Of a stretch of DNA of 64,000 bases, positions 25,216-40,618 are shown in pieces. A model generated the notes under the pieces. It did no database searches. It was not told where the DNA came from and saw only the letters and a program-made list of their open reading frames with translations. Made by a program: the position numbers and the translations under genes. The stretch covers positions 600 to 64,599 of the forward strand of contig NZ_JAGWUA010000002.1 of the NCBI RefSeq assembly GCF_028868675.1. Direction: 5' to 3'. This stretch comes from Bradyrhizobium sp. Lineage in GTDB: Bacteria; Pseudomonadota; Alphaproteobacteria; Rhizobiales; Xanthobacteraceae. How positions within the stretch are numbered: position 1 is the first letter of the stretch; every line of letters begins with the position of its first letter.

Positions 25216-25271
25216 GGCCGTCCCTCCATGTTTGGCAGGCGGGTATGACAACCTCGCCCGTTCTTTATATT

Positions 25272-25287: not shown

Positions 25288-25349
25288 ATTCAGATTTGTC
25301 TAATCATCTCTGATTGGATTGTCGCGCGCGCAAATGGGAACGATGTGCA

Positions 25350-25658: not shown

Positions 25659-25683
25659 TCCGGCGCGGCGTGCGCGCAGGCGT

Positions 25684-25896
25684 TCAGGTCTTGGTCTGCG
25701 CAGCCGCCCAGTCGCCCATCGATCGCGCCCAGCGTGCGGCCGTTGGCGCGTCGAGTTCGAGAATGGTGTAGCGGCTGCCTTCGCGGATGGTGACGCGCAG
25801 GAGCCGCATGCCGCTCTCGAAGTCGACCTCCGCGAGCCAGATCTCACGGCCGTAGGGTGCCGCAATGGTGTCGATCCGCGTGTTCGCCGTCGTCAT
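25684..25896 (-). CDS. Small hypothetical protein (70 aa)
   Basis: PYGREIWL.EVDFESGMRLLRVTIREGSRYTILELD; 4-bp overlap with the upstream ORF. Confidence 0.7.
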   Translation of the reverse strand: MTTANTRIDTIAAPYGREIWLAEVDFESGMRLLRVTIREGSRYTILELDAPTAARWARSMGDWAAAQTKT

Positions 25897-26093
25897 TTTG
25901 CGGTCCGCTCTCCGCGATAGAAGGCAAGCTCGAGGATAGCCTCCCATTTGCGCGGTGTGTCCGGAAACTCTGGCTTGATATCGAAGTAGAGATGGATCTC
26001 GCCGCGGCGCGCGGCCTGCACCACGAGATCCTCGAGCTGGTCGAACGTCGTAATGTCCGGGTGGGCGATGAGGAGATCGCTGATCTGGGCCAT
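25893..26093 (-). CDS. Small hypothetical protein (66 aa)
   Basis: ISDLLIAHPDITTFDQL...DIKPEFPDTPRKWE; operonic behind the TauD-like gene. Confidence 0.7.
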   Translation of the reverse strand: MAQISDLLIAHPDITTFDQLEDLVVQAARRGEIHLYFDIKPEFPDTPRKWEAILELAFYRGERTAK

Positions 26094-26100
26094 TGCTGTC

Positions 26101-27033
26101 TCAATCCTCCGATCGGCCGATGCGGCCATGGTAGCGAATTCTGTAGAGCAGGCGGCCGCCGGTCGCGGCGGAGCGGAAGGCGCTCCGGTCGTGCAGGACG
26201 TTGTTGCAGATCAATCCCTGGCCCGGCGACATCCTGGTGCGCAGCACGAGGGGATCGGTGCCCAGGATCCGCTCGAGCGCGGCGACGGCCCTTCTGGTCG
26301 GCTCGTCGTTGCGCCACACGATGTTGCGCTTGCGGGCCGTGTAGCGCATGCCGAGCGTGCCGCCGGGCTGCACGAAGAACACCGGCCCAACATTGACCGG
26401 CCGGATGGTACCGTTTGCCTCGGCATTCTCCGGAATGCTCATGGCGGACGAATGCATCAGCGCGACGATATGCGCCGGGTCCTCGTCGCGCAGCCTGATA
26501 TAGGCGATCTCGGGGTCGAGCAGCCGGTTTTCTCCGCCGTGCTCGGCGCCTTGCGCGCAATGCAGCAGCATCGCCTGCACCGAACGGCCGGCACCGTGAA
26601 AGTTGTAATAGCCGTCGGTGTGCCAGGCGATGGCCCGATCTGTGTAGGGAATATAGCCGTAGCGTTCGCCGCCCTGGACCGCCTCGATGCGCACGACGCC
26701 GTCGGCCTCGGCCGATCGATGATCCTCGATCGCGCGCAGGCCGAAGGTCGCGCCGAACGAAAGCAGGCTCGCTCGCACCGACGCTTCGTCGTCGTCGATG
26801 TGGCCGAATGCATAGACGGCCATGTTGGCCCGATCGCAAGAAGCTGCGATTGCGTCGCGTTCTCTCGTGCTCACGCGCCGCGGGTCACGGATCTCGACGG
26901 CGATGTCTTCGACCCGCGCGGGATACCGGAGGAGCTTGATGTCGCGCCATCGCCGGTAACTGCTGTCGTCCGCGAGATTCAACGGGCCCGCATGCGTCTG
27001 GAATTCTTCTTCCGATTCTGCGGCCGCAGCCAT
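26101..27033 (-). CDS. TauD/TfdA-like Fe(II)/2-oxoglutarate oxygenase
   Basis: WHTDGYYN (HxD), LLHC, NNVLHDR, RLLYRIRY. Confidence 0.85.
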   Translation of the reverse strand: MAAAAESEEEFQTHAGPLNLADDSSYRRWRDIKLLRYPARVEDIAVEIRDPRRVSTRERDAIAASCDRANMAVYAFGHIDDDEASVRASLLSFGATFGLRAIEDHRSAEADGVVRIEAVQGGERYGYIPYTDRAIAWHTDGYYNFHGAGRSVQAMLLHCAQGAEHGGENRLLDPEIAYIRLRDEDPAHIVALMHSSAMSIPENAEANGTIRPVNVGPVFFVQPGGTLGMRYTARKRNIVWRNDEPTRRAVAALERILGTDPLVLRTRMSPGQGLICNNVLHDRSAFRSAATGGRLLYRIRYHGRIGRSED

Positions 27034-27070
27034 GCCTTGTGTCCTCGCTCGCGCCGAAGTCAGTTGATTG

Positions 27071-27110
27071 CTTGACCGCGGTTGCGAGTCATGTATTCTA
27101 ATATTCGAAT
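27071..27110 (+). promoter_or_regulatory. Putative dsrA sigma70 promoter with overlapping SqrR-type operator
   Basis: CTTGAC(27071)-N17-TATTCT; ATTC-TAATATTC-GAAT at 27095-27110. Confidence 0.7.
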
Positions 27111-27229
27111 TTAGTGGTATTCTGACTCAGCCACGCGAAAAAGCAAACGGCCGAGTGCGCGAGAGCGAAAGTCTCCGCGGGTCGGCAGGGAATGGAAACG
27201 GTCGCCGCGCAACAGCGGGAGGGCAGTCT

Positions 27230-28540
27230 ATGTCCGACGAAGACAAACACGGCCAGGCATCTTCCGGCGAACCGCCGGCAGCGCGTCATTCGACGCCGAT
27301 GCTGGATCAGCTCGAAGCGGGGCCGTGGCCGAGTTTCGTCACCGGGCTGAAGCGGCTGCGCGACGCCGGCGACAAGGCGTATGCGCCGATGATGAACGAC
27401 CTGCTCGGCCAGCTCGAACATTCCTACGAGAACCGGACCGGCTACTGGAAGGGCGGCACCGTCTCGGTGTTCGGCTATGGAGGCGGCGTCATTCCCCGCT
27501 TCTCGGAAGTCGCCGACAAATTCCCGCAATCGAAGGAGTTCCATACGCTGCGTGTGCAGCCGCCCGCCGGCTATCACTACACGACCGACCTGCTGCGTCA
27601 GCTCTGCGACATCTGGGAGAAGTACGGCTCGGGGCTGATCGCCCTGCACGGCCAGAGCGGCGACATCATGTTCCAGGGCTGCTCGACGGAGAACGTCCAG
27701 AAGGCGTTCGACGAGTTCAACGAGATCGGCTTCGATCTCGGCGGCGCCGGTCCGGCGTTGCGGACCTCGACGAGCTGCGTCGGCCACGCGCGATGCGAGA
27801 AGTCCTGCTACGACGAGGTGAGGGCGCACCGTTCCGTCATCAACGAATTCCTCGACGAGATGCATCGGCCGGCGCTGCCGTATAAATTCAAATTCAAGTT
27901 CTCCGGCTGCGGCAACGACTGCGTCAACGCCATCCATCGCGCCGACTTCGCCGTGATCGGCACCTGGCGCGACGACATGAAGGTCGACCAGGAAGAAGTG
28001 AAGAAATACGTCGCCAAGGCAGGCCGCAAATACACCATCGACCACGTCATCGCGATGTGTCCGACGCGCGCCCTGAGCCTGAACGACGACGACACGCTGG
28101 ATGTCGACAACAAGTCGTGTGTGCGCTGCATGCACTGCCTGAACGTCATGAACAAGGCGCTTTCGCCCGGCGACGACCGCGGCGCGTCGATCCTGATCGG
28201 CGGCAAGCGCTCGCTCAAGATCGGCGATCTCATGGGCACGATGATCGTGCCGTTCATCAAGCTCGAGACCGACGAGGACTATCAGAGGCTGATCGAGTTC
28301 GGGCGCCGGCTGATCGACTTCTTCGCCGAGAACGCGCTCGAGCACGAACGCATCGGCGAGACCATGGATCGCATCGGGCTGCCTGCGTTCCTCGAAGCGA
28401 TCGGCGTCGACCCCGATCCCAACATGGTGAACCATCCGCGGACCTCGTCGTTCGTCCGCACCGACGACTTCACCGTCGAGGCCGAGAAGTATTTCGAACG
28501 CAAGGCCCGCGAGGCGGGCCTCAACGTCGCCGCGGACTGA
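27230..28540 (+). CDS. dsrA: Dissimilatory sulfite reductase alpha subunit (oxidative type)
   Basis: GPWPSFVTGLK, YWKGG, CVGHARCE, FKFKFSGCGNDC, CVRCMHC. Confidence 0.98.
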   Translation: MSDEDKHGQASSGEPPAARHSTPMLDQLEAGPWPSFVTGLKRLRDAGDKAYAPMMNDLLGQLEHSYENRTGYWKGGTVSVFGYGGGVIPRFSEVADKFPQSKEFHTLRVQPPAGYHYTTDLLRQLCDIWEKYGSGLIALHGQSGDIMFQGCSTENVQKAFDEFNEIGFDLGGAGPALRTSTSCVGHARCEKSCYDEVRAHRSVINEFLDEMHRPALPYKFKFKFSGCGNDCVNAIHRADFAVIGTWRDDMKVDQEEVKKYVAKAGRKYTIDHVIAMCPTRALSLNDDDTLDVDNKSCVRCMHCLNVMNKALSPGDDRGASILIGGKRSLKIGDLMGTMIVPFIKLETDEDYQRLIEFGRRLIDFFAENALEHERIGETMDRIGLPAFLEAIGVDPDPNMVNHPRTSSFVRTDDFTVEAEKYFERKAREAGLNVAAD

Positions 28541-28628
28541 TCGCGCCGGGTATTGGCTCCGCGGCCGGACCGGACCGGCCGCGGACGCCACCCGACAACG
28601 GGAAGGGATCGTGAGGAGTGTCGCCAAC

Positions 28629-29708
28629 ATGAACAGCACCGTTCAGCCGCGCCGTCCCGTCGAGACGGGGGTGCCGGATCCGTTCCCCTACATGCATCCG
28701 CTCATGCGCAAGAACTACGGCGCCTGGGCTTGGCACGATCGCCTGCGCCCCGGCGTGCTCCACCACGTCGCCAAGAGCGGCGACCAGATCTGGACGGTGC
28801 GTGCCGGCACCCAGCGCCAGATGGACGTGTTTACGATCCGCAAGCTCTGCGACATCGGCGACAAATATGCGGAAGGCCACGTCCGCTTCACGACGCGCAG
28901 CAACATCGAGTTCATGGTGAGTTCGGTCGACAAGGTGCAGCCCCTGATCGATGCGCTGAACGCGGCCGGCTTTCCGGTGGGCGGTACGGGCAACTCCGTC
29001 TCGATGATCTCGCATACGCAGGGCTGGCTGCACTGCGACATTCCGGGCACCGACGCCTCCGGCGTCGTCAAGAGCCTGATGGACATGATGCATCACGAGT
29101 TCACGCACGAGGAGATGCCGAACCGGGTGCGCATCACCACGTCGTGCTGCCAGATCAACTGCGGCGGCCAGGGCGACATCTCGATCAACGTCCAGTACAC
29201 CAAGCCGCCGAAGATCAATCACGATCTCGTCTCGAAGGTCTGCGAGCGCCCCGCGGTGGTGGCGCGATGCCCGGTGGCGGCGATTCGTCCGGCGCTGGTC
29301 GACGGCAAGCCGTCGCTCGAAGTCGACGAGAAGAAATGCGTCTGCTGCGGTGCCTGCTATCCGCCGTGCCCGCCGATGCAGATCAACGGCGCCGACTCCA
29401 CCAAGATCGCGGTGTGGGTGGGCGGCAAGCATTCCAACGCCCGCTCCAAGCCGACGTTCCACAAGCTCGTCGTCGCCAACCTGCCGAACAATCCGCCCCG
29501 CTGGCCGGAGGTCACGGAAGTCGTTCGCAAGATTCTCTATGCCTACAAGGAGAATGGCCGCGATTTCGAGCGCCTCGGCGAGTGGATCGAGAGGATCGGC
29601 TGGCCGCGGTTCTTCGAGCTGACGGGCTTTGCCTTCACCAAGCACCACCTCGATACGTGGACTGGTGCTCGAAAAACCATGAACATGTCGGCACACGTGC
29701 ACTTCTGA
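28629..29708 (+). CDS. dsrB: Dissimilatory sulfite reductase beta subunit
   Basis: HTQGWLHCD, TSCCQINCGG, CVCCGAC, NNPPRWPE, ERLGEWIERIGW. Confidence 0.98.
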   Translation: MNSTVQPRRPVETGVPDPFPYMHPLMRKNYGAWAWHDRLRPGVLHHVAKSGDQIWTVRAGTQRQMDVFTIRKLCDIGDKYAEGHVRFTTRSNIEFMVSSVDKVQPLIDALNAAGFPVGGTGNSVSMISHTQGWLHCDIPGTDASGVVKSLMDMMHHEFTHEEMPNRVRITTSCCQINCGGQGDISINVQYTKPPKINHDLVSKVCERPAVVARCPVAAIRPALVDGKPSLEVDEKKCVCCGACYPPCPPMQINGADSTKIAVWVGGKHSNARSKPTFHKLVVANLPNNPPRWPEVTEVVRKILYAYKENGRDFERLGEWIERIGWPRFFELTGFAFTKHHLDTWTGARKTMNMSAHVHF

Positions 29709-29774
29709 GCCGCTCATGGCGCCTTTGACGCCGTCGAAGGCCACTCCCGCCACAGGCCAAGAGGAGATCGCGAC

Positions 29775-30167
29775 TTGCGCTTCGGAATCGTCGTCAACGA
29801 GGGGCCTTATACCCGCCAGGCGTCGGACTCGGCCTATCTGTTCGCCAAGGCGGCGTTGGCGAAGGGGCACGAGATCTTCCGCGTCTTCTTCTATCACGAC
29901 GGCGTCAACAACGGGACGCGGTTCACGGTGCCGCCGCAGGACGACCGCAACCTGCAGCGGTTGTGGAGCGAGCTCGCGGAGACGCACAAGCTCGATCTCG
30001 TGGTGTGCATCGCGGCGGCGCAGCGCCGCGGCATACTCGACGCCAATGAGGCGAAACGGCAGGGCAAGGACGGCGACAACATCGCGCCCGGCTTTCGCAT
30101 CTCGGGTCTTGGACAACTGATCGAGGCGGGCATCCAGGCCGATCGCCTGGTCGTTTTCGGCGATTGA
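29775..30167 (+). CDS. dsrE: DsrE sulfurtransferase subunit
   Basis: TTG start after GAGGAG; FFYHDGV, VCIAAAQRRG, GFRISGLGQL. Confidence 0.95.
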   Translation: MRFGIVVNEGPYTRQASDSAYLFAKAALAKGHEIFRVFFYHDGVNNGTRFTVPPQDDRNLQRLWSELAETHKLDLVVCIAAAQRRGILDANEAKRQGKDGDNIAPGFRISGLGQLIEAGIQADRLVVFGD

Positions 30168-30177
30168 GGAATGCGCG

Positions 30178-30594
30178 ATGTCTGAGCAGGCCAACAGGAA
30201 GAAGTTCCTCTACGTCAACCGCAGGGCGCCGTACGGGACGATCTATGCGCTCGAATCGCTCGAGGTCGTGCTGATCGGCGCGGCCTTCGAGCAGGACGTC
30301 AGCCTCGCCTTCATCGATGACGGCGTCTACCAGCTGGTCGCCGGGCAGGACACCGCCGGCGTCGGCATGAAGAATTTCTCGAAGACCTATCGCGCGCTCG
30401 GCGACTACGAGGTGCGCAAGCTCTATGTCGAGCGCGAATCGCTCGCTGAGCGCGGCCTCACGGTCGAGGACCTGATGCCGATCACCTATGAGGACGAGGA
30501 CGACGACTACGCCGAGAAGCCGTCGATCCATCTCACCGACCGTTCGGAGATGGCGAGACTCATCGCCGAACAGGACGTGATCCTGAGCTTCTGA
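30178..30594 (+). CDS. dsrF: DsrF
   Basis: RAPYGTIYALESLE, FIDDGVYQL, ESLAERGL. Confidence 0.95.
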   Translation: MSEQANRKKFLYVNRRAPYGTIYALESLEVVLIGAAFEQDVSLAFIDDGVYQLVAGQDTAGVGMKNFSKTYRALGDYEVRKLYVERESLAERGLTVEDLMPITYEDEDDDYAEKPSIHLTDRSEMARLIAEQDVILSF

Positions 30595-30596
30595 GG

Positions 30597-30911
30597 ATGC
30601 GCATGCCGACCCTGCACACCGTCAACAAGTCGCCCTACGAGCGCTCGTCGCTGGAATCCTGCCTCGATCACGTCGCCGAGGGCGACAGCGTCCTGATGTT
30701 CGAGGATGCGGTCGTCGGCGCCCGCCGCGGCGGAAAATTCATCGCGACGCTGAAGGCCGAGCGGCCGTCATGCGCGCTCTACGTGCTCGGACCGGATCTC
30801 GCGGCGCGCGGCATCAAGCCGGCGGATATCGCGGAGGGAATTTCAGTGGTGGACTATGGCGGCTTTGTCGACCTTGCCGTCGCCAACGCACGGGTCTGCG
30901 CCTGGCTCTGA
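30597..30911 (+). CDS. dsrH: DsrH
   Basis: LHTVNKSPY, FEDAV, DLAARG, VDYGGFVDL. Confidence 0.93.
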   Translation: MRMPTLHTVNKSPYERSSLESCLDHVAEGDSVLMFEDAVVGARRGGKFIATLKAERPSCALYVLGPDLAARGIKPADIAEGISVVDYGGFVDLAVANARVCAWL

Positions 30912-30940
30912 CATAAGGTCGATCATTCGGGAGTGAGACA

Positions 30941-31276
30941 ATGAGCGGATATCAAATCAACGGCACGGTCGCCGAGCACGACGAGGAAGGCTATCTCAAG
31001 GACATCGGCGAATGGAATACCGACCTCGCCGGTCTGATCGCCAAGAGCGAGAACATCGAGATGACGCCGGATCACTGGGAGGTCGTGAATTTCCTCCGTG
31101 ATTACTACGAGGAATATCAGATCGCGCCGGCCGTCCGCATCCTCGTGAAGGAGATGACCAAGAAGTTCGGCAAGGAGAAGGGCGATCAGAAGGCGCTCTA
31201 CGCCCTGTTCCCGTACGGCCCGGCGAAGCAGGCTTGCAAGATCGCCGGCCTGCCGAAGCCGACCGGTTGCGTCTGA
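30941..31276 (+). CDS. dsrC: DsrC
   Basis: C-terminus QACKIAGLPKPTGCV with both conserved Cys. Confidence 0.97.
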   Translation: MSGYQINGTVAEHDEEGYLKDIGEWNTDLAGLIAKSENIEMTPDHWEVVNFLRDYYEEYQIAPAVRILVKEMTKKFGKEKGDQKALYALFPYGPAKQACKIAGLPKPTGCV

Positions 31277-31312
31277 CGGGGCAGCGCAGCAGTCCGCGCG
31301 GGAGAGAGGGCG

Positions 31313-32038
31313 ATGCTGACGTCGGTCTTTGCGGTGATGCTCTATATGGCCACGCTCGTGATGGCGGCGGGCCTCGGTCATCGCATCTGGCTTTACGCGA
31401 CGACGCCCGCGCCGCTGAAGATTCCGACCATGCCGGCGCCGACGACGCGCGGCGGCGTCGTGCTGCGAATGCTGTCCGAGGTCGTGGTCTTCCGCAGCCT
31501 GTTCAAGGCGAACAAATGGATCTGGCTGTTCGGCTGGGTCTTCCATGCGGCGCTGGCTCTGGTCGTGATGCGCCACCTGCGATACTTCCTGCAGCCCGTG
31601 CCGGAAGCCATCGTTCTGATCCAGCCGTTCGGCGTGCTTGCGGGCATCGCGATGGTCGCTGCGCTCGTCGCGCTCTGGGCGCGTCGCCTCCTCGTGCCCC
31701 GTATCCGCTACATCAGCAGCCCGTCGGACCACCTGATGCTGGTCCTCCTGCTTGCGATCGGCGCAAGCGGGCTCGCGATGAAGTTCTGGGCCCACACCGA
31801 CATCGTGGCCGCGAAGGCCTTCTGCCTGGGCCTCGTCTATCTCGATTGGCAGCCGCTGCCGGCCGATCCGGCGCTGCTGGTCCATCTGACCCTGGTCGCG
31901 GTCCTGATGCTGATCTTCCCGTTCTCGAAACTGCTGCATGCGCCCGGCGTGTTCTTCAGTCCCTCGCGCAATCAGGCGGACGACAGCCGGGAGCGGCGGC
32001 ACGTTCCGCCCGTTCGGCTCGAAGCCGTGCCTCGCTAG
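31313..32038 (+). CDS. dsrM: DsrM membrane cytochrome b (NarI-like)
   Basis: PAPLKIPT, FHAAL, RHLRYF, SDHLML, HLTL, FPFSKLLH. Confidence 0.95.
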   Translation: MLTSVFAVMLYMATLVMAAGLGHRIWLYATTPAPLKIPTMPAPTTRGGVVLRMLSEVVVFRSLFKANKWIWLFGWVFHAALALVVMRHLRYFLQPVPEAIVLIQPFGVLAGIAMVAALVALWARRLLVPRIRYISSPSDHLMLVLLLAIGASGLAMKFWAHTDIVAAKAFCLGLVYLDWQPLPADPALLVHLTLVAVLMLIFPFSKLLHAPGVFFSPSRNQADDSRERRHVPPVRLEAVPR

Positions 32039-32057
32039 GCCCCAGGAGAACAGCGCC

Positions 32058-33614
32058 ATGGCGGCAGAACAGAGCAAGTTTGATCCGGTCGCCGACGGAC
32101 GGGGCGATCCGCTCGAGATGCCCCGGCTTGCCTGCGGAGCCATGGCGGCATCGAAGCCTTACGTCGCGACTCCGGCACATCAGCAGGCGCTCGGCTTTCC
32201 CGGTGAACTGGTCGAGGACTGGCAGGACAAGGCGATTGCCCGTCTCGGCGAACTGCTCGAGGAGTCGCGGTCGCTGCGCGTCTATCTGGACGCCTGCGTT
32301 CGCTGCGGCGCCTGCACCGACAAGTGCCACTACTTTCTGGGTACCGGCGATCCCAACAACATGCCGGTCGCCCGCCAGAACCTGCTGCGCAAGATCTACC
32401 GGCGCTACTTCACCCTGAGCGGCAAGCTCTTTCCCTGGCTCGTCGGCGCGGAGGATCTCACCAAGGACGTGCTCGAGGAGTGGTACAGCTACTTTCACCA
32501 GTGCTCGCAGTGCCGCCGATGCTCGGTGTTCTGCCCGTATGGCGTCGATACCGCCGAAATCTCCATGGCCGCGCGCGACATCATGGATAGCATCGGCCTC
32601 GGCCAGAAATATTCCAACGAGATCATCGGCAAGGTCTTCAACATCGGCAACAACCTCGGCCTGCAGCCCAAGGCGCTCAAGGCCACGCTTGCGGGGCTGG
32701 AAGAGGACATCGAGGAGGAGACCGGCGTCCCGGTCCGCCTGCCGCTCGACGAGAAGGGCGCCACCATCCTGCTGGTGACGCCGAGCGCCGACTTCTTTGC
32801 CTCGCCGCACATGGAGGGCCTGATCGGCTACGCCAAGGTCCTGCACGAGTCCGGCGTGAGCTGGACGCTGAGCACCCAGGCCTCGGAGGCCGCCAATTTC
32901 GGCATGTTCGTCGGGTCGCAGGATGCGATGCAGAAGATCGCGCTGCGCATCCGCAAGGCGGCGCAGGATCTCGGCGTCAAGCGCATCGTCTTCGGCGAAT
33001 GCGGGCACGCCTGGCGGGTGGCCTACAGCTTCCTCGACACCCTCGCCGGGCCCTTCGATTTTCTCGACCGCAACTATCCGGTTCCGCAGCACATCTGCGA
33101 GTTCACCCACGACCTCATCCAGCAGGGCAAGCTGCGGTTCGACAAGTCGAAGAACGACGAGTTTCGCCTGACGTTTCACGATTCCTGCAACGTGGCGCGC
33201 GCCTCGCGCATGGGGCGAGAGCCGGGCGGTCAGTTCGAGATTCCCCGCGCCGTTCTTCGCGCGGTCTGCAACCACTTCTTCGACATGGCGCCGGACACGA
33301 TCCGCGAGAGCACGCTGTGCTGTGGCGGCGGCGGCGGCCTGCTCACCGACGAGTTGATGGACCTCCGCCTCAAGGGGGCGATGCCGCGCATGCGCGCGCT
33401 GCGGGAGGTCGCCGAGGAGCATGGCGTGACGCACATGGCCGCGATCTGCGCCATCTGCAAGGCGCAGTTCTCGAAGGTTCTGCCGCAATACGGTTTCGAG
33501 ATGGACGCAATCGTCAGCGTTCACCAGATGGTCTCGAACGCGCTGGTCCTGACCGGATCGCGCCAGGAGGCCGAGCTGGATGGTAAGGCCGAAGTCGCCT
33601 TGCAGGAGGCGTGA
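32058..33614 (+). CDS. dsrK: DsrK (HdrD-like Fe-S subunit)
   Basis: CVRCGACTDKC, CSQCRRCSVFC, GECGH, HDSC, CCGGGGG, CAIC. Confidence 0.96.
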   Translation: MAAEQSKFDPVADGRGDPLEMPRLACGAMAASKPYVATPAHQQALGFPGELVEDWQDKAIARLGELLEESRSLRVYLDACVRCGACTDKCHYFLGTGDPNNMPVARQNLLRKIYRRYFTLSGKLFPWLVGAEDLTKDVLEEWYSYFHQCSQCRRCSVFCPYGVDTAEISMAARDIMDSIGLGQKYSNEIIGKVFNIGNNLGLQPKALKATLAGLEEDIEEETGVPVRLPLDEKGATILLVTPSADFFASPHMEGLIGYAKVLHESGVSWTLSTQASEAANFGMFVGSQDAMQKIALRIRKAAQDLGVKRIVFGECGHAWRVAYSFLDTLAGPFDFLDRNYPVPQHICEFTHDLIQQGKLRFDKSKNDEFRLTFHDSCNVARASRMGREPGGQFEIPRAVLRAVCNHFFDMAPDTIRESTLCCGGGGGLLTDELMDLRLKGAMPRMRALREVAEEHGVTHMAAICAICKAQFSKVLPQYGFEMDAIVSVHQMVSNALVLTGSRQEAELDGKAEVALQEA

Positions 33615-33625
33615 GGGAGCGGGTC

Positions 33626-35575
33626 ATGAGCGAGACGGTCTCAACCACGAAGCGGAGTTTCCGCCGCTTCAAGAGCGGCGACACGATGTGGAACGATCTG
33701 ACCCGGAAGATCTTCCAGGCCGATCACTCCCACAAATGTCCGACCTATGTCCACCGCACGGCGCCGTGCCAGGGTAGCTGCCCGTCAGGCCACGACATAC
33801 GCGGCTGGCTGGCGATTGCGCGCGGCATGGACAAGCCGCCGGTCGCCGGCATGGCATGGCAGGAATACGCCTTTCAGCGCATGGTCGAGGCCAACCCGTT
33901 TCCCGCCACGATGGGCCGCGTCTGTCCCGCGCCGTGCGAGGACGGCTGCAGCCGCAACGAGGTCGACGATTTCGTCGGCATCAATGCCGTGGAGCAGTAT
34001 GTCGGCGACTGGGCCATCGAGCACAAGCTGTCGCTGCCCGCGGCGCCCGCGCCGGACGGCAAGCGCGTCGCGGTCGTCGGGGGCGGTCCGGCCGGTCTCG
34101 CCGCGGCCTATTTTCTCAGGCGCAAGGGCCATGCGATCGTGCTGTTCGATGCGCATGACAAGCTCGGCGGCATGATGCGCTTCGGCATTCCCGGCTACCG
34201 CACGCCGCGCCAGATGGTCGACGCGGAGATCGATCGGATTCTCGCGCTCGGGGGCATCGAGACGCGGCTCGGCGTCACCGTCGGCAAGGACGTTGCGCTC
34301 GACGAACTGGATCGGGAGTTCGATGCGGTCTACTGGGCCTGCGGCGCCCAGAAGGGCCGGCCGCTGCCGGTACCCGGCGCGGACGCCGAGAATTGCATCA
34401 CCGGCGTCGAATTCCTCGATGCCTTCAACCAGGGCTGGGTGTTCTCGACGGCCAAGCGCATCGTCGTGGTCGGCGGCGGCGACACCTCGATCGACGTCGC
34501 CTCGGTGGCGCGTCGTCTCGGCCACATCGGAGTGACGAACCCGCACGACACTGCCGACCACGCGGCCTTCGGCTTTACCGCGCAGGACGTCGCGGGAACT
34601 CTGCGGCGAGAGGGTGTGGAGGTTGTACTCACATCGCTCTTCCCGGTCGAGCAGATGACCGCGGCCGAGCACGAGCGTGAAGACGCCAAGCGGGAGGGCG
34701 TGGAGATCAAGGGCGGCGTCATGCCGCTTGCGATCGTCAAGGACGCGCAGAACCGCGCCACCGCCGTGCGCATGTGCCGATGCACCATGAAGGGCATGAC
34801 GCCGGTCCCGGTCGACGGCACGGAGTTCGAGATCCCCTGCGACATGATCATTTCCGCGATCGGACAGATGGCGGATTTTGCCGACGGGCTCGAGAAGCTG
34901 GACGGCGGACGCGGCGCCATCGCCATCGACGGCTCCTACAAGGTCCGCAACACCGCCAAATATTTCGCCGGCGGCGACGTCGTGCGGCCGCATCTGCTGA
35001 CGACCGCGATCGGTCATGGCCGCATCGCCGCCGAAACCATCGACCGCTTCCTCGCCGGTCTTCCCGAAGACAGGCGGCCGAAGGTCGACGTGCACCAGTT
35101 CAATCTGCTGCAGGAGTTGCACGCCCGCGGCCTCGATCCCGACCCCTACGACCACACCCAGAGGCGCGGGACGTCGGGCGGCAGCTTCGCAGTCCACAAC
35201 TACGAGGATCGCTCGGCGACGCAGGTGATCTCGCACGAGGAGCTGTTCAAGGGGCATTTCGGCTTCGTCCCGCGCGGGCGGCGCGCCACGCGCGAGGTCG
35301 GCGCCGAGAGCGTGCTGGGCGATTTCGAAGAGCGCATGCATGGACTGACCGAGGAGCAGGCCCGCAAGGAGGGCGAACGCTGCATGAGCTGCGGCCTGTG
35401 CTTCGAGTGCGACAATTGCGTGATCTTCTGTCCGCAGACCGCGGTGCAGCGCGTGCCGAAGAAGGAGCGCGCCGTCGGCCGCTACGTCACCACCGACTAC
35501 ACCAAGTGCATCGGCTGCCACATCTGCATGGATGTCTGCCCGACCGGCTACATCCAGATGGGGCTGGGAGAGTAG
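33626..35575 (+). CDS. dsrL: DsrL iron-sulfur flavoprotein (DsrL-1-like)
   Basis: CQGSCPSGHDIRG, MGRVCPAPCE, GGGPAG, GGGDT, TSLFP (no YRR), C-terminal ferredoxin motifs. Confidence 0.95.
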   Translation: MSETVSTTKRSFRRFKSGDTMWNDLTRKIFQADHSHKCPTYVHRTAPCQGSCPSGHDIRGWLAIARGMDKPPVAGMAWQEYAFQRMVEANPFPATMGRVCPAPCEDGCSRNEVDDFVGINAVEQYVGDWAIEHKLSLPAAPAPDGKRVAVVGGGPAGLAAAYFLRRKGHAIVLFDAHDKLGGMMRFGIPGYRTPRQMVDAEIDRILALGGIETRLGVTVGKDVALDELDREFDAVYWACGAQKGRPLPVPGADAENCITGVEFLDAFNQGWVFSTAKRIVVVGGGDTSIDVASVARRLGHIGVTNPHDTADHAAFGFTAQDVAGTLRREGVEVVLTSLFPVEQMTAAEHEREDAKREGVEIKGGVMPLAIVKDAQNRATAVRMCRCTMKGMTPVPVDGTEFEIPCDMIISAIGQMADFADGLEKLDGGRGAIAIDGSYKVRNTAKYFAGGDVVRPHLLTTAIGHGRIAAETIDRFLAGLPEDRRPKVDVHQFNLLQELHARGLDPDPYDHTQRRGTSGGSFAVHNYEDRSATQVISHEELFKGHFGFVPRGRRATREVGAESVLGDFEERMHGLTEEQARKEGERCMSCGLCFECDNCVIFCPQTAVQRVPKKERAVGRYVTTDYTKCIGCHICMDVCPTGYIQMGLGE

Positions 35576-35579
35576 AGGG

Positions 35580-36041
35580 ATGCGGCGACCCCGGACCATG
35601 GCGCCGATCGTGGCCTCGATGGTCATCGTCGCCGCTGTCTCCGGCATGAGCGCGTTTGCCGGGGACGGCACGCCCGTTCCGCATCCGCCCAGGGGCAAGG
35701 GCGAGCGCTGCGTCGCCGACACCGGCTTCATGCGCAAGAACCACATGAAGATGCTGCTGCATCACCGCACCGAGGCCGTGCACCTCGGCGTGCGTACGCC
35801 GCAATACGACCTCAACGGCTGCGTGAGCTGCCATGCGGTCGAGGGTTCCGACGGCAAGCCGGTGAGTTTTGCGAGCGATCGGCACTTTTGCAAATCTTGC
35901 CACAGCTACGCGGCGGTCTCGATCGACTGCTTCGAGTGTCATGCCTCGCGGCCCGAGGTGCAGGGCAAGACCGCATTCGTCGCGCCGGCCGACAGAGAGG
36001 TTGCAGCGATCGATCGATACCTGCGGGACATCAGGCCATGA
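35580..36041 (+). CDS. dsrJ: DsrJ triheme cytochrome c
   Basis: CVSCH, CKSCH, CFECH; MRKNHM; start could be 35598. Confidence 0.93.
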   Translation: MRRPRTMAPIVASMVIVAAVSGMSAFAGDGTPVPHPPRGKGERCVADTGFMRKNHMKMLLHHRTEAVHLGVRTPQYDLNGCVSCHAVEGSDGKPVSFASDRHFCKSCHSYAAVSIDCFECHASRPEVQGKTAFVAPADREVAAIDRYLRDIRP

Positions 36042-36781
36042 GCACCGAACCGCAGCAAGCTCTCCCTGACCGCAGGACCATGCTGCGCGGCCTCGGCGGC
36101 GCCTTCGCGACGCTGCTCGCGCCGGGCGTAACTCTCTACGCCTTCGGCGCCAACGACGCGCAGGCGCAGGCGTCGCCAAAAGTGCGCTGGGCGCTCCTGA
36201 TCGATCTCGGCAAATGTCCCGCCGGCTGCGACCTCTGTGTGACCGCTTGTCGCGAGGAGAACGGCTGGCAGGGAAACGGGCGGGCGGAAACCGACGCGCA
36301 GTGGATCCGCAAGGTGCGGCTGCGCGACGCGCGCACCGGTCAGGATCGCGAGGTCCCGGTGATGTGTCAGCATTGCGACAAGCCGGCCTGCGTCGACGTT
36401 TGCCCGACCGGCGCCTCGTTCAAGCGGCCGGACGGCATCGTGCTCGTCGACAAGCACATCTGCATCGGCTGCCGCTTCTGCATGATGGCGTGCCCCTACA
36501 AGGCGCGCTCCTTCGTGCATGAGCCGGTGACGGACCAGAAGCCCTGGGCGCCGCGCGGCAAGGGAACGGTGGAAGGCTGCACTCTCTGCGTCCATCGCTT
36601 GGACGCCGGGCGGCCTCCCGCCTGCGTCGAAACCTGTGCCGCCAAGGGCGGCGGCGCGATGCTGTTCGGCGATCTCAACGATCCCGGCAGCGAGATCGCG
36701 AAGGCTGTCGCAAGGCACGCGCCGGCGCAGATCCGCTCCGACCTCGGGCTGGAGCCCGCGGTCCGGTATCGAAACCTCTGA
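36038..36781 (+). CDS. dsrO: DsrO periplasmic Fe-S protein
   Basis: Tat DRRTML; CQHCDKPACVDVCP, CIGCRFCMMACP, CTLC. Confidence 0.93.
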   Translation: MSTEPQQALPDRRTMLRGLGGAFATLLAPGVTLYAFGANDAQAQASPKVRWALLIDLGKCPAGCDLCVTACREENGWQGNGRAETDAQWIRKVRLRDARTGQDREVPVMCQHCDKPACVDVCPTGASFKRPDGIVLVDKHICIGCRFCMMACPYKARSFVHEPVTDQKPWAPRGKGTVEGCTLCVHRLDAGRPPACVETCAAKGGGAMLFGDLNDPGSEIAKAVARHAPAQIRSDLGLEPAVRYRNL

Positions 36782-36798
36782 GGGACGGCGGAGCGCGA

Positions 36799-38016
36799 AT
36801 GGCGAAGCTCAGGTTCCAGCGGCTCGAACGGTCCAGCCCGGCATCATGGGCCATGATCGGATTGCAGGTGCTGCTGCTCGCTCTCGGTCTGGCCGCGGCG
36901 CTCTATATGGAGGAGCACGGTCACGCCGTCAGCGGAATGAGCAACCAGATCGTCTGGGGTCTGCCGCATGTCTTCGCGGTCTTCCTGATCGTCGCGGCGT
37001 CCGGCGCGCTCAACGTCGCCTCGATCTCGTCGGTGTTCGATCGTCCCGCCTACAAGCCTTATGCGAGGCTGTCCGGCCTGCTCGCGATCGCGCTGCTCGT
37101 GGGCGGGCTCGCGGTCCTCGTCCTCGATCTCGGCCGGCCGGAGCGGCTCCTGGTGGCGATGACCACCTACAATTTCAAATCGATCTTCGCCTGGAACATC
37201 TATCTCTATTCGGGCTTCGTGCTGATCGTCGGTGCCTACCTGTTCGCCATGATGGACCGGCGAGCCTCGCAGTCCACTCGGCTCGGCAAGACGATGGGAT
37301 GGATCGCCTTCGGCTGGCGTCTCGTGCTGACCACGGGCACCGGCTCCATCTTCGGCTTCCTTGCGGCACGCGAGGCCTACGACGCCGCGATCATGGCGCC
37401 GCTCTTCATCGCGGCGTCGTTCCTCTACGGGCTCGCCTTCATGGTGCTCGTGCTGGCGGCCGCAAACCGCGACGCGGGGCACGAGCTTCTGACCGCCGAC
37501 ATCGGCAAGAGCTTCCGCTTCCTGTTGAGCATTTTCGCGCTGTCACTCCTGTACTTCACGGTCGTTCACCATCTGACAAAGCTCTATGCGGGCGGCCATC
37601 GAGGCGTGGAGATTTTTCTGCTCCGCGATGGCGGCATCTATACGCTCCTGTTCTGGCTCGGCCAGATCGCATGCGGGACGCTGCTGCCGCTCGGACTGCT
37701 CGCCGCGGCGCGCGATCCGGCGGCGGTTCGCCGTGCGCTTCCGCGGGCCTCCCTTCTCTTCCTGATCGGCGGTCTTGCGCAGATGTATGTCGTCATCGTC
37801 GGAGGCCAGGCCTATCCGTTGAAATTGTTTCCCGGCTTCGAGGCGTCGAGCTCGTTCTTCGACGGCGTCGTCGCGAGCTATCATCCGTCGCTGCCGGAGT
37901 GGCTGCTCGGCATCGGCGGCATGGCGCTGGCGCTGCTGCAGGTCAGTCTTGCGCTGCGGTTGATGCCGTTCCTGCCCGAAGCCCGGACGGCTGATCGATC
38001 ACCGGTGGCGGCGTGA
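36799..38016 (+). CDS. dsrP: DsrP (NrfD-family membrane protein)
   Basis: IVWGLPHV, VAASGALN, DLGRPERL. Confidence 0.95.
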   Translation: MAKLRFQRLERSSPASWAMIGLQVLLLALGLAAALYMEEHGHAVSGMSNQIVWGLPHVFAVFLIVAASGALNVASISSVFDRPAYKPYARLSGLLAIALLVGGLAVLVLDLGRPERLLVAMTTYNFKSIFAWNIYLYSGFVLIVGAYLFAMMDRRASQSTRLGKTMGWIAFGWRLVLTTGTGSIFGFLAAREAYDAAIMAPLFIAASFLYGLAFMVLVLAAANRDAGHELLTADIGKSFRFLLSIFALSLLYFTVVHHLTKLYAGGHRGVEIFLLRDGGIYTLLFWLGQIACGTLLPLGLLAAARDPAAVRRALPRASLLFLIGGLAQMYVVIVGGQAYPLKLFPGFEASSSFFDGVVASYHPSLPEWLLGIGGMALALLQVSLALRLMPFLPEARTADRSPVAA

Positions 38017-39428
38017 CCATGGGCAGGCTGTTCATTTCTGCGACCCACAAGTCCTCGGGCAAGACCACGATCTCGGTCGGGCTTGCCGGCGCGCTCGCCG
38101 CGCGCGGCCTGGCGGTCCAGACCTTCAAGAAGGGTCCGGACTACATCGATCCGATGTGGCTTGCGTGGGCGAGCGGCCGCGCCTGCTACAATCTCGACTT
38201 CAATACCCAGAGCGAGCCCGAGATAATGGCGAGCTTTCGCAGCCGCTCGCGCGGCGCCGACATCGTGCTGGTCGAGGGCAACAAGGGACTTCACGACGGC
38301 GTCGATCCCGCGGGAAGCGACAGCAGCGCGGCGCTGGCGCGCCTGCTCCGCACGCCCGCGATCCTGGTGGTGGATGCCATGGGCATGGCGCGGGGCATCG
38401 CGCCGCTCGTGCTCGGCTACACGGCGTTCGACCCGAAGGTCGACGTCGCCGGGATCATCCTCAACAGGGTCGGCGGGGCGCGGCAGGAGTCCAAGCTCCG
38501 TCAGGCGCTCGAACGTTACACCAGCGTGCCGGTGCTGGGCGCAATCGGACGCGACGACGCGCTCGCGGTCGCGGAACGGCATCTCGGCCTGACGACGCCA
38601 GCCGAAGATGCCGGCCGCGACGAGAAGCTCGCGCATATGGGTGAGGTGGTCGCGCGCAATGTCGACCTGGATCGGCTGACCGCGATCGCAGCGGCGGCGG
38701 GACGTCCAGCGGGACCTGCCGTGATCGAGATGCCCGCGCCGCGCGACATCCGGGTCGCCGTGGCGCGCGACGCTGCCTTCGGCTTTTACTATGCCGACGA
38801 CCTCGAGGCGCTGGAGCGGGCCGGCGCGAAGCTCGTCTTCGTCGATCTCCTGCGCGACGAGCGGCTTCCGCCGGTCGACGCGTTGTTCATCGGCGGCGGC
38901 TTTCCCGAGACGCAGGCGGCTGCGCTCGCCGCCAACGGCGCAATGCGCGCTCATCTGCGCGCTGCGATTCGTGGCGGCTTGCCGACTTATGCCGAATGCG
39001 GCGGTCTGATGTATCTGACGCGTTCCATCGCATTCCGCGGCGAGGTCCACGACATGGTCGGGGTCGTCCCGGCCGACACGGTCGTAGGCCAACGCCCGCA
39101 GGGGCGGGGCCTCGTCGTTCTCGAGGAGACGGCTGATGCGCCCTGGCCGTTCCGGCCAGAGCGTTCGTCGATTCCGGCGCACGAATTCCACCACGGCGCG
39201 CTGCGGGACATCGATCCAGGCTGCCGCTTCGCCTATCGCGTGCGGCGGGGCCATGGCGTGGACGGCGCGCGTGACGGCATCGTCATTCATAATCTTCTCG
39301 CCGGCTTCAGTCACTTGCGCGACACCTCGCGTCATCGCTGGGCGCGGCGCTTCATCTCGTTCGCGCGCATGGTGCGCAACAGCGGCGGCTGCGCCGCTGC
39401 GGATCGGAGGCAGCTTGCCGAGCATTAG
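38013..39428 (+). CDS. dsrN: DsrN siroheme amidase (CbiA/CobB-like)
   Basis: KSSGKTT, FKKGPDYIDP, EGNKGLHDG, AECGGLMYL, HEFH; directly follows dsrP. Confidence 0.92.
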   Translation: MTMGRLFISATHKSSGKTTISVGLAGALAARGLAVQTFKKGPDYIDPMWLAWASGRACYNLDFNTQSEPEIMASFRSRSRGADIVLVEGNKGLHDGVDPAGSDSSAALARLLRTPAILVVDAMGMARGIAPLVLGYTAFDPKVDVAGIILNRVGGARQESKLRQALERYTSVPVLGAIGRDDALAVAERHLGLTTPAEDAGRDEKLAHMGEVVARNVDLDRLTAIAAAAGRPAGPAVIEMPAPRDIRVAVARDAAFGFYYADDLEALERAGAKLVFVDLLRDERLPPVDALFIGGGFPETQAAALAANGAMRAHLRAAIRGGLPTYAECGGLMYLTRSIAFRGEVHDMVGVVPADTVVGQRPQGRGLVVLEETADAPWPFRPERSSIPAHEFHHGALRDIDPGCRFAYRVRRGHGVDGARDGIVIHNLLAGFSHLRDTSRHRWARRFISFARMVRNSGGCAAADRRQLAEH

Positions 39429-39496
39429 GGCGTGCGGGAACGGCCGGCGCGGGAGCGTCGACGGTCAATGGGGCAACAAGCAGCGAGTGAGGGATC

Positions 39497-40618
39497 ATGC
39501 CGACCAATGACGATGTCCTGAAAGCGCTGGCGGGCGTGGCGGGGCCCGACGGCCGCACGCCGCTGACCGAGACCGGCCTGGTCACAGGCATCAGCATTCG
39601 CGACGACAAGATTTGCGTGGCCATCAACGCCGCACCGGAACTCGCGCAGGCGCTGGAGCCGATGCGCGTCGCCGCCGAGGCTGCGCTGAAGGCGTTGCCC
39701 GGCGCCGGCTCCGCACTGGTCGTGCTCACCTCCGAGGCGAAGGCCGAGGACGCGCGTCCAAGACCTTCTGCAGCCCCGGCGCGCTCCGGCGGCGGCGTCG
39801 ATCGGATAAGGCAGATCATTGCGGTCGCCTCGGGCAAGGGTGGCGTCGGCAAGTCCACCACGGCCTGCAATCTGGCGCTGGCGCTGTCCCGGCTGGGGAT
39901 GAAGGTCGGCGTGCTCGATGCCGACGTCTACGGTCCTTCCATGCCGAAACTGTTGGGCCTGCACACGAAGCCGATCATCGGGCCTGATGGCCATTCGCTG
40001 CTGCCGCTGGAGAAATTCGGCGTCAAGGTGATGTCGATCGGTTTTCTGGTCGAGGACGATGCGCCGATCATCTGGCGCGGCCCGATGGTGATGTCGGCGC
40101 TGACGCAGCTCTTGCGCGACGTCGACTGGGGCGAGCTCGACGTGCTGGTGGTCGACATGCCGCCGGGTACCGGCGACGCCCAGCTCACCATCGCGCAGAA
40201 CGTGCCGCTGGCCGGCGCCGTCCTGGTCTCGACGCCGCAGGATCTCGCCTTGCTCGACACGCGCCGCGGCGCGGCCATGTTCCGGCAAGTCGACGTTCCG
40301 CTGCTCGGCGTGATCGAAAACATGAGCTACTTCCTGTGCCCGCATTGCGGCGGGCGATCGGACGTCTTCGCCCATGGCGGCGCGAGCTGCGAGGCGGAAA
40401 AGCTCGGCGTGCCCTTCCTCGGCGAGATTCCGCTCGACATCGTCATTCGCGAAACCTCGGACGGAGGAATCCCGGTCGTCGCCGGTTCTCCGGAAGGGCC
40501 TCACGCAGCCGCCTATCTGGCGATCGCGGAGCGCGTGAGCGCGGCGCTCCGGTCTCCCGCCAGGGCGGAGGCGGACGCCGGCAGGCTCGGGCGGTCCGGC
40601 AAGGCCGGTCGGGCCTAG
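39497..40618 (+). CDS. mrp: Mrp/ApbC Fe-S cluster carrier ATPase
   Basis: SGKGGVGKST, DADVYGPS, WRGPM, DMPPGTGD, ENMSYFLCPHC. Confidence 0.95.
   Translation: MPTNDDVLKALAGVAGPDGRTPLTETGLVTGISIRDDKICVAINAAPELAQALEPMRVAAEAALKALPGAGSALVVLTSEAKAEDARPRPSAAPARSGGGVDRIRQIIAVASGKGGVGKSTTACNLALALSRLGMKVGVLDADVYGPSMPKLLGLHTKPIIGPDGHSLLPLEKFGVKVMSIGFLVEDDAPIIWRGPMVMSALTQLLRDVDWGELDVLVVDMPPGTGDAQLTIAQNVPLAGAVLVSTPQDLALLDTRRGAAMFRQVDVPLLGVIENMSYFLCPHCGGRSDVFAHGGASCEAEKLGVPFLGEIPLDIVIRETSDGGIPVVAGSPEGPHAAAYLAIAERVSAALRSPARAEADAGRLGRSGKAGRA

Follow-up and report, generated by a model that had tools for sequence, protein, structure and literature searches.

The sulfur gene module and its surroundings

The window, a stretch of 64 000 nucleotides assigned to Bradyrhizobium sp., carries 13 dsr genes in the order dsrABEFHCMKLJOPN, all on the forward strand, between positions 27230 and 39428 (NCBIfam and Pfam scans of the window; table 1). 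These limits, already proposed in a sequence-only reading of the same DNA, are exactly the start of dsrA and the stop of dsrN. The canonical order and intactness described there were confirmed: the profile matches follow in that order, and no internal stop codon was found in any of the 13 genes. Neighbouring genes overlap or are separated by gaps of at most 70 nt, so no dsrD or dsrT is hidden inside the operon; the absence of both genes had been claimed before, and indeed no unassigned ORF space is left inside 27230–39428. Neither dsrR nor dsrS was found after dsrN in the window. The gene dsrA has an ATG start codon and the ribosome-binding site GGGAGGG, and dsrB may start at GTG 28611 or at ATG 28629. 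An ORF at 29716–30120 is spurious; the true dsrE frame begins with TTG at 29775. The protein lengths agree with those of Allochromatium vinosum (DsrE, 130 versus 130 aa; DsrH, 104 versus 102 aa; DsrC, 111 aa).

Table 1. Predicted features of the window in and around the sulfur module.
Feature	Position	Strand	Match
Bradyrhizobium-type core segment (dapD, HAD nucleotidase, yihA, yidC, histidine kinase, tRNA-Arg)	1–10447		synteny
ArsR-family SqrR/BigR-like regulator, module left end	22696–23043	+	NCBIfam NF040642 BigR, 8e-27
tusA, sulfur carrier	23099–23326	-	NCBIfam TusA, 7.9e-18
dsrE2, sulfur carrier, membrane protein	23384–23890	-	NCBIfam NF047629, 218 bits (cut-off 210)
sqr, type I sulfide:quinone oxidoreductase	23932–25251	-	Acidithiobacillus ferrooxidans SQR (3SZ0), 480 bits, full length
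rspA-type DsrC-like paralogue	25350–25658	+	Pfam DsrC, 1.5e-25
DUF6967 small protein	25684–25947	-	Pfam PF22295, 1.3e-25
dsrQ, TauD-family Fe(II)/2-oxoglutarate dioxygenase-like	26101–27033	-	Pfam TauD, 1.4e-17
dsrA, oxidative-type sulfite reductase alpha subunit	27230–28540	+	TIGR02064, 580 bits (cut-off 393)
dsrB, beta subunit	28611 or 28629–29708	+	TIGR02066, 514 bits (cut-off 342)
dsrE	29775–30167	+	Pfam DsrE, 1.4e-29
dsrF	30178–30594	+	TIGR03010
dsrH	30597–30911	+	TIGR03011
dsrC	30941–31276	+	TIGR03342, 158 bits
dsrM	31313–32038	+	NF038037
dsrK	32058–33614	+	NF045796, 599 bits
dsrL, NAD(P)H:acceptor oxidoreductase	33611 or 33626–35575	+	PRK12771, 698 bits
dsrJ	35580–36041	+	NF038038
dsrO	36038–36781	+	NF045797, 303 bits
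dsrP	36799–38016	+	Pfam NrfD, 160 bits
dsrN, siroheme amidase, CobB family	38013–39428	+	NF002204, 407 bits
mrp/apbC Fe–S cluster carrier	39497–40618	+	NF008669, 330 bits (cut-off 348)
yeiE-like LysR regulator	40615–41499	-	NF040889
yeiH-family putative sulfate exporter	41613–42683	-	TIGR00698

The operon is part of a 16.8-kb sulfur module (22648–39428). Seven more sulfur genes, absent from the sequence-only reading, lie directly upstream of it at 22648–27033. The SqrR/BigR-like regulator keeps both sensing cysteines (LILCLL, KVFCG), and the three catalytic cysteines of the SQR line up with 3SZ0. TusA and the DUF6967 gene are kept in L043, another metagenome-assembled genome (MAG) labelled Bradyrhizobium, with an amino-acid identity of 91% for the former and a dN/dS of 0.20 for the latter. 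The RspA-type paralogue has retained CysB and lacks the penultimate CysA (C-terminus ...GQACKIAGMRRPRAWSTG); a DsrC paralogue of this kind is also present in Methylovirgula thiovorans HY1 (PMC9371685). Divergently transcribed from dsrA is the gene for a protein with the HTD...H facial triad, named TauD/DsrQ after PMC9371685; of 80 alphaproteobacterial loci, about 65 have a homologue of it upstream of dsrA.

On the right the module ends with dsrN, the last gene common to 80 related metagenome loci. An mrp/apbC gene follows dsrN in only four of 80 related loci, and its linkage to the module is possible, though not conserved. The yeiE-like and yeiH genes are not kept beside dsr in relatives. The module lies between two nos (N2O reductase) clusters, in a region that starts at a tRNA-Arg gene (10368–10444) and differs between reference Bradyrhizobium genomes; synteny with the references breaks at the 3' end of this gene, 12 kb to the left of the module.

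Protein motifs and comparison with known Dsr systems

Several features support the assignment of the cluster to the oxidative (reverse) type, and the earlier claim to this effect stands. DsrE Cys78 and DsrH Cys20 are conserved in end-to-end alignments with the A. vinosum DsrE and DsrH (2HY5). The C-terminal arm of DsrC has the arrangement CysB-X10-CysA (...KQACKIAGLPKPTGCV / ...QACKIAGLPKPTGCV), a pattern identical to that of A. vinosum DsrC (1YX3). DsrL is about 650 aa long and has both ferredoxin domains, the C-terminal one with two [4Fe-4S] motifs; no YRR or similar motif is present. On the criteria of length and YRR motif (PMC7596348), it is predicted to be of type 1 with DsrL-1A character; the NADP-specific YRR motif is present in all DsrL-2 proteins of reducers (PMC7596348). 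All five subunits of DsrMKJOP were identified with their motifs: two CX2CX2CX3C motifs and a CCG motif in DsrK, three CXXCH haem motifs in DsrJ and the twin-arginine (Tat) signal DRRTMLRG in DsrO. DsrA contains the cluster motif CX5C...CX3C. The closest DsrAB homologues (87–94% identity) belong to established or predicted sulfur oxidisers; the best DsrA homologues overall are 87–92% identical, with 87–88% for two sulfur oxidisers, Blastochloris sulfoviridis and Rhodomicrobium vannielii. A neighbour-joining (NJ) tree built without a reductive-type outgroup places the DsrAB of the window within the rDsr clade of the Alphaproteobacteria.

It is very improbable that these proteins run reductively, or serve sulfur disproportionation or sulfite detoxification, and not energy-yielding oxidation. 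DsrAB is reversible in principle, and no sulfite oxidase was seen in the window. The TauD-like DsrQ could also make sulfite from sulfonates, as speculated in PMC9371685. Against these points stand the active cysteines of DsrEFH, the lack of dsrD, the place of DsrAB in the oxidative clade, the absence from DsrL of the motif typical of DsrL-2, and the co-location of SQR and TusA–DsrE2 feeder genes with dsr.

The order from dsrA to dsrN is identical to that of the A. vinosum operon dsrABEFHCMKLJOPNRS; DsrE and DsrC align closely, and the two systems have DsrE Cys78, DsrH Cys20, DsrC CysA/CysB and the DsrL-1A features in common. In A. vinosum, however, dsrN is followed by dsrR and dsrS, whereas in the window dsrQ, rspA, sqr, dsrE2 and tusA are grouped directly upstream; the window host is an alphaproteobacterium not known as a phototroph, unlike A. 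vinosum. The same layout as in the window (tusA, dsrE2A, a DsrC-like gene without CysA, TauD/DsrQ and dsrABEFHCMKLJOPN) has been published for M. thiovorans HY1 (PMC9371685), which belongs to the same bacterial order and likewise comes from a wetland habitat. The Dsr proteins of HY1 are induced more than 31-fold on thiosulfate, as measured by proteomics (PMC9371685). HY1 is a methanotroph of the Beijerinckiaceae, whereas the window host appears to come from a different family. In HY1 sox and dsr form one cluster, in L043 soxBC stand beside the module, and in the window no sox is present and the module lies between the nos clusters.

Among the purple non-sulfur Hyphomicrobiales, the DsrA proteins of R. 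vannielii, B. sulfoviridis, Roseiarcus and Rhodoblastus are 85–88% identical to that of the window. The divergent orientation of dsrQ and dsrA is common to these loci, and several share the sqr–dsrE2–tusA feeder block. Their hosts are members of the Hyphomicrobiaceae, Blastochloridaceae, Roseiarcaceae and Rhodoblastaceae, whereas the window host is Nitrobacteraceae-like. The sulfur lithotrophy described in Bradyrhizobium is Sox-based (PMC5748708), as the sequence-only reading had stated. B. diazoefficiens, of the same genus-level lineage, shares the lithotrophic use of reduced sulfur; it relies on a periplasmic Sox multienzyme pathway, in contrast to the predicted cytoplasmic Dsr of the window, and no dsr genes are reported there (PMC5748708).

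Host lineage and origin of the module

No rRNA gene was found within the window, and the host assignment is based on one 10-kb core segment. Positions 1–10447 are collinear with the complete reference genomes of B. manausense CP077970 (84–90% nucleotide identity) and Bradyrhizobium sp. NP1 (79–89%). YidC is 88% identical to its homologues in B. manausense, B. liaoningense and B. guangdongense; among its best 120 matches the identity never falls below 84%, and those with a name all come from Bradyrhizobium. For DapD the identity is 92–94%. The rhizobial-type host proposed earlier can thus be specified as Bradyrhizobium-type and Nitrobacteraceae-like. Judged by these core genes, it does not fall in a known rDsr lineage, and the literature searched contained no description of rDsr in Bradyrhizobium.

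The module is physically linked to these core genes. An artefact of assembly or binning, joining an operon from another Hyphomicrobiales organism to the Bradyrhizobium core, would be compatible with a window that apparently lies on a 66-kb contig, from a genome that is a draft or derived from a metagenome, and with closest named Dsr relatives outside the Nitrobacteraceae. Nevertheless, metagenome contigs assembled independently in different studies cross both module junctions with 0–19 differences (21353–23823, 17505–24271, 36443–40108 and 40150–44319), and depth stays even from the first nos region through dsr to the second (about 85x in X1, about 40x in X4), which argues that the linkage is no assembly artefact. 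The closest copy is held by L043, itself independently assembled, and an artefact is extremely improbable. Near-identical sequence occurs in metagenomes from nine studies, of wetland, paddy soil and wastewater types. One soil metatranscriptome yielded short contigs, mostly 95–99% identical, possibly from relatives.

The DsrAB tree that the sequence-only reading had proposed as a check pairs the window with L043, its nearest relative among the matches listed (94% identity, NJ bootstrap 100%; DsrB, 95%). L043 is collinear with the window at 22648–35459 (81–83% nucleotide identity), the collinearity starting at the left end of the module, and all 16 module genes common to both are under purifying selection (dN/dS 0.03–0.21). 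The next relatives are of Roseiarcus, Rhodoblastus and Beijerinckiaceae types, inside a Hyphomicrobiales clade. Rhodomicrobium branches one tier outside these; the sampled loci of Rhodobacterales and of Magnetovibrio/Rhodospirillaceae type are distant. A donor of Magnetospirillum, Rhodomicrobium or Rhodobacterales type, as formerly suggested, is therefore not favoured by the tree; Magnetospirillum is absent from the sample. At least 596 related rDsr loci are present among GTDB species genomes, and a single Bradyrhizobium-labelled genome is among the best 80 of these matches.

Most likely, the module entered the ancestor of a Bradyrhizobium sub-lineage from a Hyphomicrobiales family of Roseiarcus, Rhodoblastus or Beijerinckiaceae type, and has since been inherited and rearranged. 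The marks of acquisition are weak. Neither an integrase nor att or flanking direct repeats were found in the window, GC and GC3 are like those of the host with no compositional break, and no plasmid with the gene was found; a classical integrative genomic island was rejected on the absence of integrase, direct repeats and compositional shift. The key nodes of the DsrAB tree have NJ bootstrap values of 39–69%. The host-like composition and the lack of mobility genes and att sites would also fit a module ancestral in Hyphomicrobiales, passed vertically into Bradyrhizobium and lost in most species, as would the occurrence of rDsr in many families of the order with the same accessory genes. The dS between the window and L043 copies (0.46–1.2) is moreover of the same order as that of core genes between Bradyrhizobium species (0.28–0.70). 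We nevertheless consider vertical descent somewhat unlikely: only one of the best 80 matches bears the genus label, the Bradyrhizobium pair is nested, albeit at the bootstrap values above, in the Roseiarcus/Rhodoblastus/Beijerinckiaceae-type clade, the region is variable among reference genomes, and the left neighbours differ, being nos/cycA in the window and sox (soxBC) in L043.

Predicted pathway and significance

The following steps are modelled on A. vinosum and M. thiovorans. The type I SQR would oxidise sulfide to sulfane sulfur, which TusA and DsrE2 would hand to DsrEFH for loading onto CysA of DsrC. DsrMKJOP would oxidise the DsrC persulfide to the trisulfide, passing electrons to quinone, and rDsrAB, its siroheme amidated by DsrN, would oxidise the trisulfide further to sulfite, its electrons reaching NAD+ through the DsrL-1A-type protein. 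No sulfite-oxidising enzyme (SoeABC, SorAB, AprBA-Sat), rhodanese or sox gene was found within the window; sulfite may then be oxidised or exported by proteins other than those identified there, with YeiH as a candidate exporter. Probable regulators of expression are the persulfide-sensing SqrR/BigR-like repressor and the RspA-like DsrC paralogue.

Judged from its genes, the locus is thus very probably a complete, functional-looking rDsr module of Hyphomicrobiales type, carried chromosomally by a soil, wetland and wastewater bacterium of the Bradyrhizobium lineage and likely gained from another family of the order. Since rDsr is widespread in Hyphomicrobiales and the layout is known from HY1, this is a host-range extension inside one order, with no new metabolism or mechanism. 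The suggestion that rDsr metabolism is extended to this lineage holds for the new host, with no prior report found for the genus. The gain lies in ecology and host range rather than in enzymology, for which the mechanism is textbook. The locus also offers a clear case in which to study how a 17-kb multi-subunit respiratory module passes from family to family inside an order.

Bradyrhizobium ranks with the most abundant genera in soil. It serves as a model in work on symbiosis and denitrification, and most studies of it have dealt with symbiosis and clade I denitrification. With full rDsr, a lineage would be able to carry the oxidation of sulfide and stored sulfur to completion inside the cytoplasm, a trait that bears on how sulfur and nitrogen are cycled in wetlands, paddy soils and wastewater. 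The variable region of about 45 kb by the tRNA-Arg, in which rDsr is flanked by clade I (Tat) and clade II (Sec) nos, might even serve N2O respiration with reduced sulfur as donor in a soil and wetland sub-lineage of Bradyrhizobium. This reading is speculative and in our view unlikely; if true, it would constitute a sulfur-driven N2O sink within the genus. On the same reading, the phylogenetic affinity that the rDsr and clade II nos modules share, to Rhodoblastus, Methylobacteriaceae and Pinisolibacter types, would suggest that genes have passed repeatedly from those families into Bradyrhizobium.

Gene content of the dsr operon and the sulfur module

The window carries an operon of 13 co-directional dsr genes, preceded by seven more genes of a larger sulfur module. 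Genes were called from a six-frame ORF list with a GC3 filter and then scanned against NCBIfam and Pfam. These scans confirm the complete dsr operon proposed in the sequence-only reading, including the exact start of dsrA, an ATG at 27230 preceded by a GGGAGGG ribosome-binding site. DsrA, DsrB, DsrK and DsrO exceed the NCBI equivalog cut-offs. DsrM, DsrJ and DsrP score below theirs, which were built on sulfate reducers, yet these are the sole significant families for each of the three proteins; DsrP also matches Pfam NrfD with 160 bits. An alternative ORF for dsrE (29716-30120) was rejected: it matches no family and is overlapped by the true frame. The intergenic spacers of the operon are at most 70 nt long, or the genes overlap, leaving no room for dsrD or dsrT. 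Neither dsrR nor dsrS was found after dsrN, and scans for promoters and terminators gave nothing above chance.

Main features of the window
Feature	Position	Strand	Remarks
dapD, pyrimidine 5'-nucleotidase, yihA, yidC, histidine kinase, then tRNA-Arg	left 10.4 kb		
tRNA-Arg(ACG)	10368-10444		
Rubrerythrin/ferritin-like ORF	11035-12009	minus	between tRNA-Arg and nosR; GC3 lower than surroundings
Clade I nosRZDFYL-apbE (apbE/nosX)	12090-21033		NosZ with Tat signal; TIGR04244, 1139 bits
Upstream block of the sulfur module	22,648-27,033		seven genes (next seven rows)
ArsR-family regulator			closest to BigR; two sensing cysteines of SqrR/BigR persulfide sensors
tusA			
dsrE2			above equivalog cut-off
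Type I sulfide:quinone oxidoreductase (SQR)			480 bits full-length against the A. ferrooxidans enzyme; three cysteines aligned
DsrC-family paralogue			CysB retained, without CysA
DUF6967 gene			
TauD-family dioxygenase-like gene	26101-27033	divergent from dsrA	HxD...H triad intact
dsr operon	27230-39428		dsrA, B, E, F, H, C, M, K, L, J, O, P, N in this order
dsrE	29775-30167		begins with TTG
Clade II nos module	43562-55604		NosZ with Sec signal; TIGR04246, 868 bits
box (aerobic benzoyl-CoA) pathway genes	57037-63999		BoxR/BadR-like regulator with shikimate-kinase domain, benzoate-CoA ligase, alpha/beta hydrolase, boxC, boxB (cut by the window end)

The conservation of this arrangement was surveyed by tblastn in 80 related loci from GTDB species genomes. 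The order from dsrA to dsrP is almost universal in Alphaproteobacteria. About 65 of the 80 loci have a TauD-like gene upstream of dsrA, and some of the Hyphomicrobiales share the sqr-dsrE2-tusA block. The divergent TauD-like gene is seen across Hyphomicrobiales, Rhodobacterales and Rhodospirillales. It is not a new finding: the gene has already been named TauD/DsrQ in Methylovirgula thiovorans HY1, its role there being a matter of speculation only (PMC9371685). Strain HY1 has the same layout as the module described here, including DsrC paralogues without CysA, and its Dsr proteins are induced more than 31-fold on thiosulfate (PMC9371685). Genes for Mrp/ApbC, a YeiE-like LysR regulator and YeiH were also considered as members of the module and rejected, since 80 related metagenome loci show no conservation of these genes downstream of dsrN, which is thus the last gene of the conserved module.

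Functional motifs and predicted sulfur oxidation

Alignment to the crystal and NMR structures of the A. vinosum proteins shows that Cys78 of DsrE, Cys20 of DsrH and the CysB-X10-CysA arm of DsrC are kept. DsrA contains the siroheme-cluster motif CX5C...CX3C, and DsrO carries a twin-arginine signal. Two ferredoxin motifs are present in DsrK along with a CCG motif, and three CXXCH motifs in DsrJ. DsrL, about 650 aa long, contains both ferredoxin domains and the GGGPAG dinucleotide-binding motif; the YRR motif was not found in it. Following Löffler et al., a missing YRR indicates DsrL-1, whose long form, DsrL-1A, occurs in sulfur oxidisers (PMC7596348). On its sequence the protein fits DsrL-1 by the missing YRR, and its length is compatible with DsrL-1A.

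By analogy with model systems, SQR would convert sulfide to sulfane sulfur, which TusA and DsrE2 would pass to DsrEFH and from there to DsrC. The DsrC-bound sulfur would then be oxidized to sulfite by DsrMKJOP and the reverse-type DsrAB, the electrons going to quinone and, via DsrL, to NAD+. DsrN would amidate the siroheme, and the SqrR/BigR-like repressor probably controls expression together with the RspA-like DsrC paralogue. No Soe, Sor or Apr-Sat genes were found within the window.

In a soil metatranscriptome (X25), short contigs, mostly 95-99% identical, fall within window positions 23453-36472. They cover sqr/dsrE2, dsrAB (the deepest), dsrEFH, dsrC, dsrMK, dsrL and dsrJ; there are almost none on dsrQ or dsrN and none on the flanking non-sulfur genes. 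These contigs are compatible with expression of this operon or of a related one.

Host and genomic setting

The left part of the window points to a Bradyrhizobium-type host, in agreement with the sequence-only reading as far as a single contig shows. The 120 best matches of YidC all reach 84% identity or more, and those with a name are all from Bradyrhizobium, the best (88%) being from B. manausense, B. liaoningense and B. guangdongense. The regions around the yidC genes of two complete reference genomes were compared with the window: positions 1-10,447 are collinear with B. manausense CP077970 (84-90% nucleotide identity) and with Bradyrhizobium sp. NP1 CP127385 (79-89%). On this evidence the host is Bradyrhizobium or a very close sister genus. 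In both references collinearity breaks off right at the 3' end of the tRNA-Arg gene, and the sequence to its right, up to at least about 56 kb, is missing there. Past this tRNA gene the references are also unlike each other, indicating that the region is variable.

The sulfur module sits between two nos clusters, one of each nosZ clade; the presence of both clades in one genome is probably uncommon. The clade II module also includes two cytochromes c, nosB-like, nosD, napG/H-like, ABC transporter, UbiA and thioredoxin-like genes. The closest named relatives of its NosZ are from Rhodoblastus sp. (89%), Pinisolibacter (86-87%) and a Methylobacteriaceae metagenome-assembled genome (MAG; 85%), the same groups as found among the Dsr relatives. 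A conserved linkage of dsr with clade II nos was considered and rejected: the nearest NosZ relatives have the clade II module in other contexts, without dsr.

It is very unlikely that the contig is chimeric. Both junctions of the module are crossed by contigs assembled independently in metagenome runs: in the run X1, a contig spans 21353-23823 with zero differences, and in the run X4, contigs cover 17505-24271, 36443-40108 and 40150-44319. Read depth, about 85x in X1 and about 40x in X4, stays flat from the clade I nos genes across dsr and into the clade II nos module. Near-identical copies of a 6-kb stretch of the operon (up to 0.89 of the sampled words) occur in metagenomes from nine studies of soil, wastewater, sediment, wetland and sludge.

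In Bradyrhizobium, the sulfur lithotrophy that has been described uses the Sox system (PMC5748708). A literature search, including Xanthobacteraceae and Alphaproteobacteria, found no report of reverse Dsr in Bradyrhizobium or its family; the attributions found were to Thiobacillus or other taxa. The proteins of the window are already public in NCBI and UniRef. What is new is a wider host range, within a single bacterial order, for a pathway that is already well understood.

Relatives and origin of the module

The best homologues of DsrA in protein databases (87-88% identity) are from Blastochloris sulfoviridis and Rhodomicrobium, followed at 81-85% by Roseiarcus, Pinisolibacter, Siculibacillus and many Hyphomicrobiales MAGs. 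GTDB species genomes contain at least 596 related dsr loci. The closest of these, L043, comes from a MAG labelled uncultured Bradyrhizobium sp., and its DsrA is 92% identical. L043 is collinear at 81-83% nucleotide identity with window positions 22,648-35,459, up to the end of its contig. The flank to the left (L043 1-5313) is unlike the window: immediately beside the module it encodes SoxB, SoxC and a YeeE/TsuA-like transporter, where the window has nos, cycA and a nitronate-monooxygenase-like gene. The neighbours of the module thus differ between the two genomes.

A neighbour-joining tree was built from concatenated DsrAB (760 columns, 100 bootstraps). The window and L043 form a pair (100% bootstrap), with a soil MAG and two Roseiarcus MAGs as sister group (69%) and Rhodoblastus, Methylobacteriaceae and Beijerinckiaceae MAGs next out (39-44%). 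These relatives belong to other Hyphomicrobiales families. Rhodomicrobium is placed further out, and the Rhodobacterales and Magnetovibrio/Rhodospirillaceae loci are distant. The donors suggested from the sequence alone, of Magnetospirillum, Rhodomicrobium or Rhodobacterales type, therefore appear mostly wrong, the loci in the tree including no Magnetospirillum sequence itself.

Across the 16 module genes common to the window and L043, dN/dS is 0.03-0.21 and dS 0.46-1.2, comparable to the dS of core genes between the window and reference Bradyrhizobium (0.28-0.70). Selection has thus maintained the module over roughly the same span of time as the divergence of Bradyrhizobium species. Marks of an island at the locus are limited to a single tRNA: neither an integrase nor an att-like repeat of the tRNA 3' end was found, there is no compositional break, and PLSDB holds no plasmid-borne DsrA. 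We read the module as an old acquisition by one Bradyrhizobium sub-lineage from a gene pool of Roseiarcus/Rhodoblastus/Beijerinckiaceae type, followed by vertical inheritance and rearrangement; that it is instead ancestral and has been widely lost seems to us rather unlikely.

The 4.0-Mb MAG chromosome MFD03044 (OY969816.1) has three separate dsrA loci (L027, L032 and L033): one is a short dsrAB-dsrC-dsrL form without dsrEFH or dsrMKJOP, one is a full operon, and in L033 dsrA alone was detected. A short form similar to that of MFD03044 is present at the locus L008.
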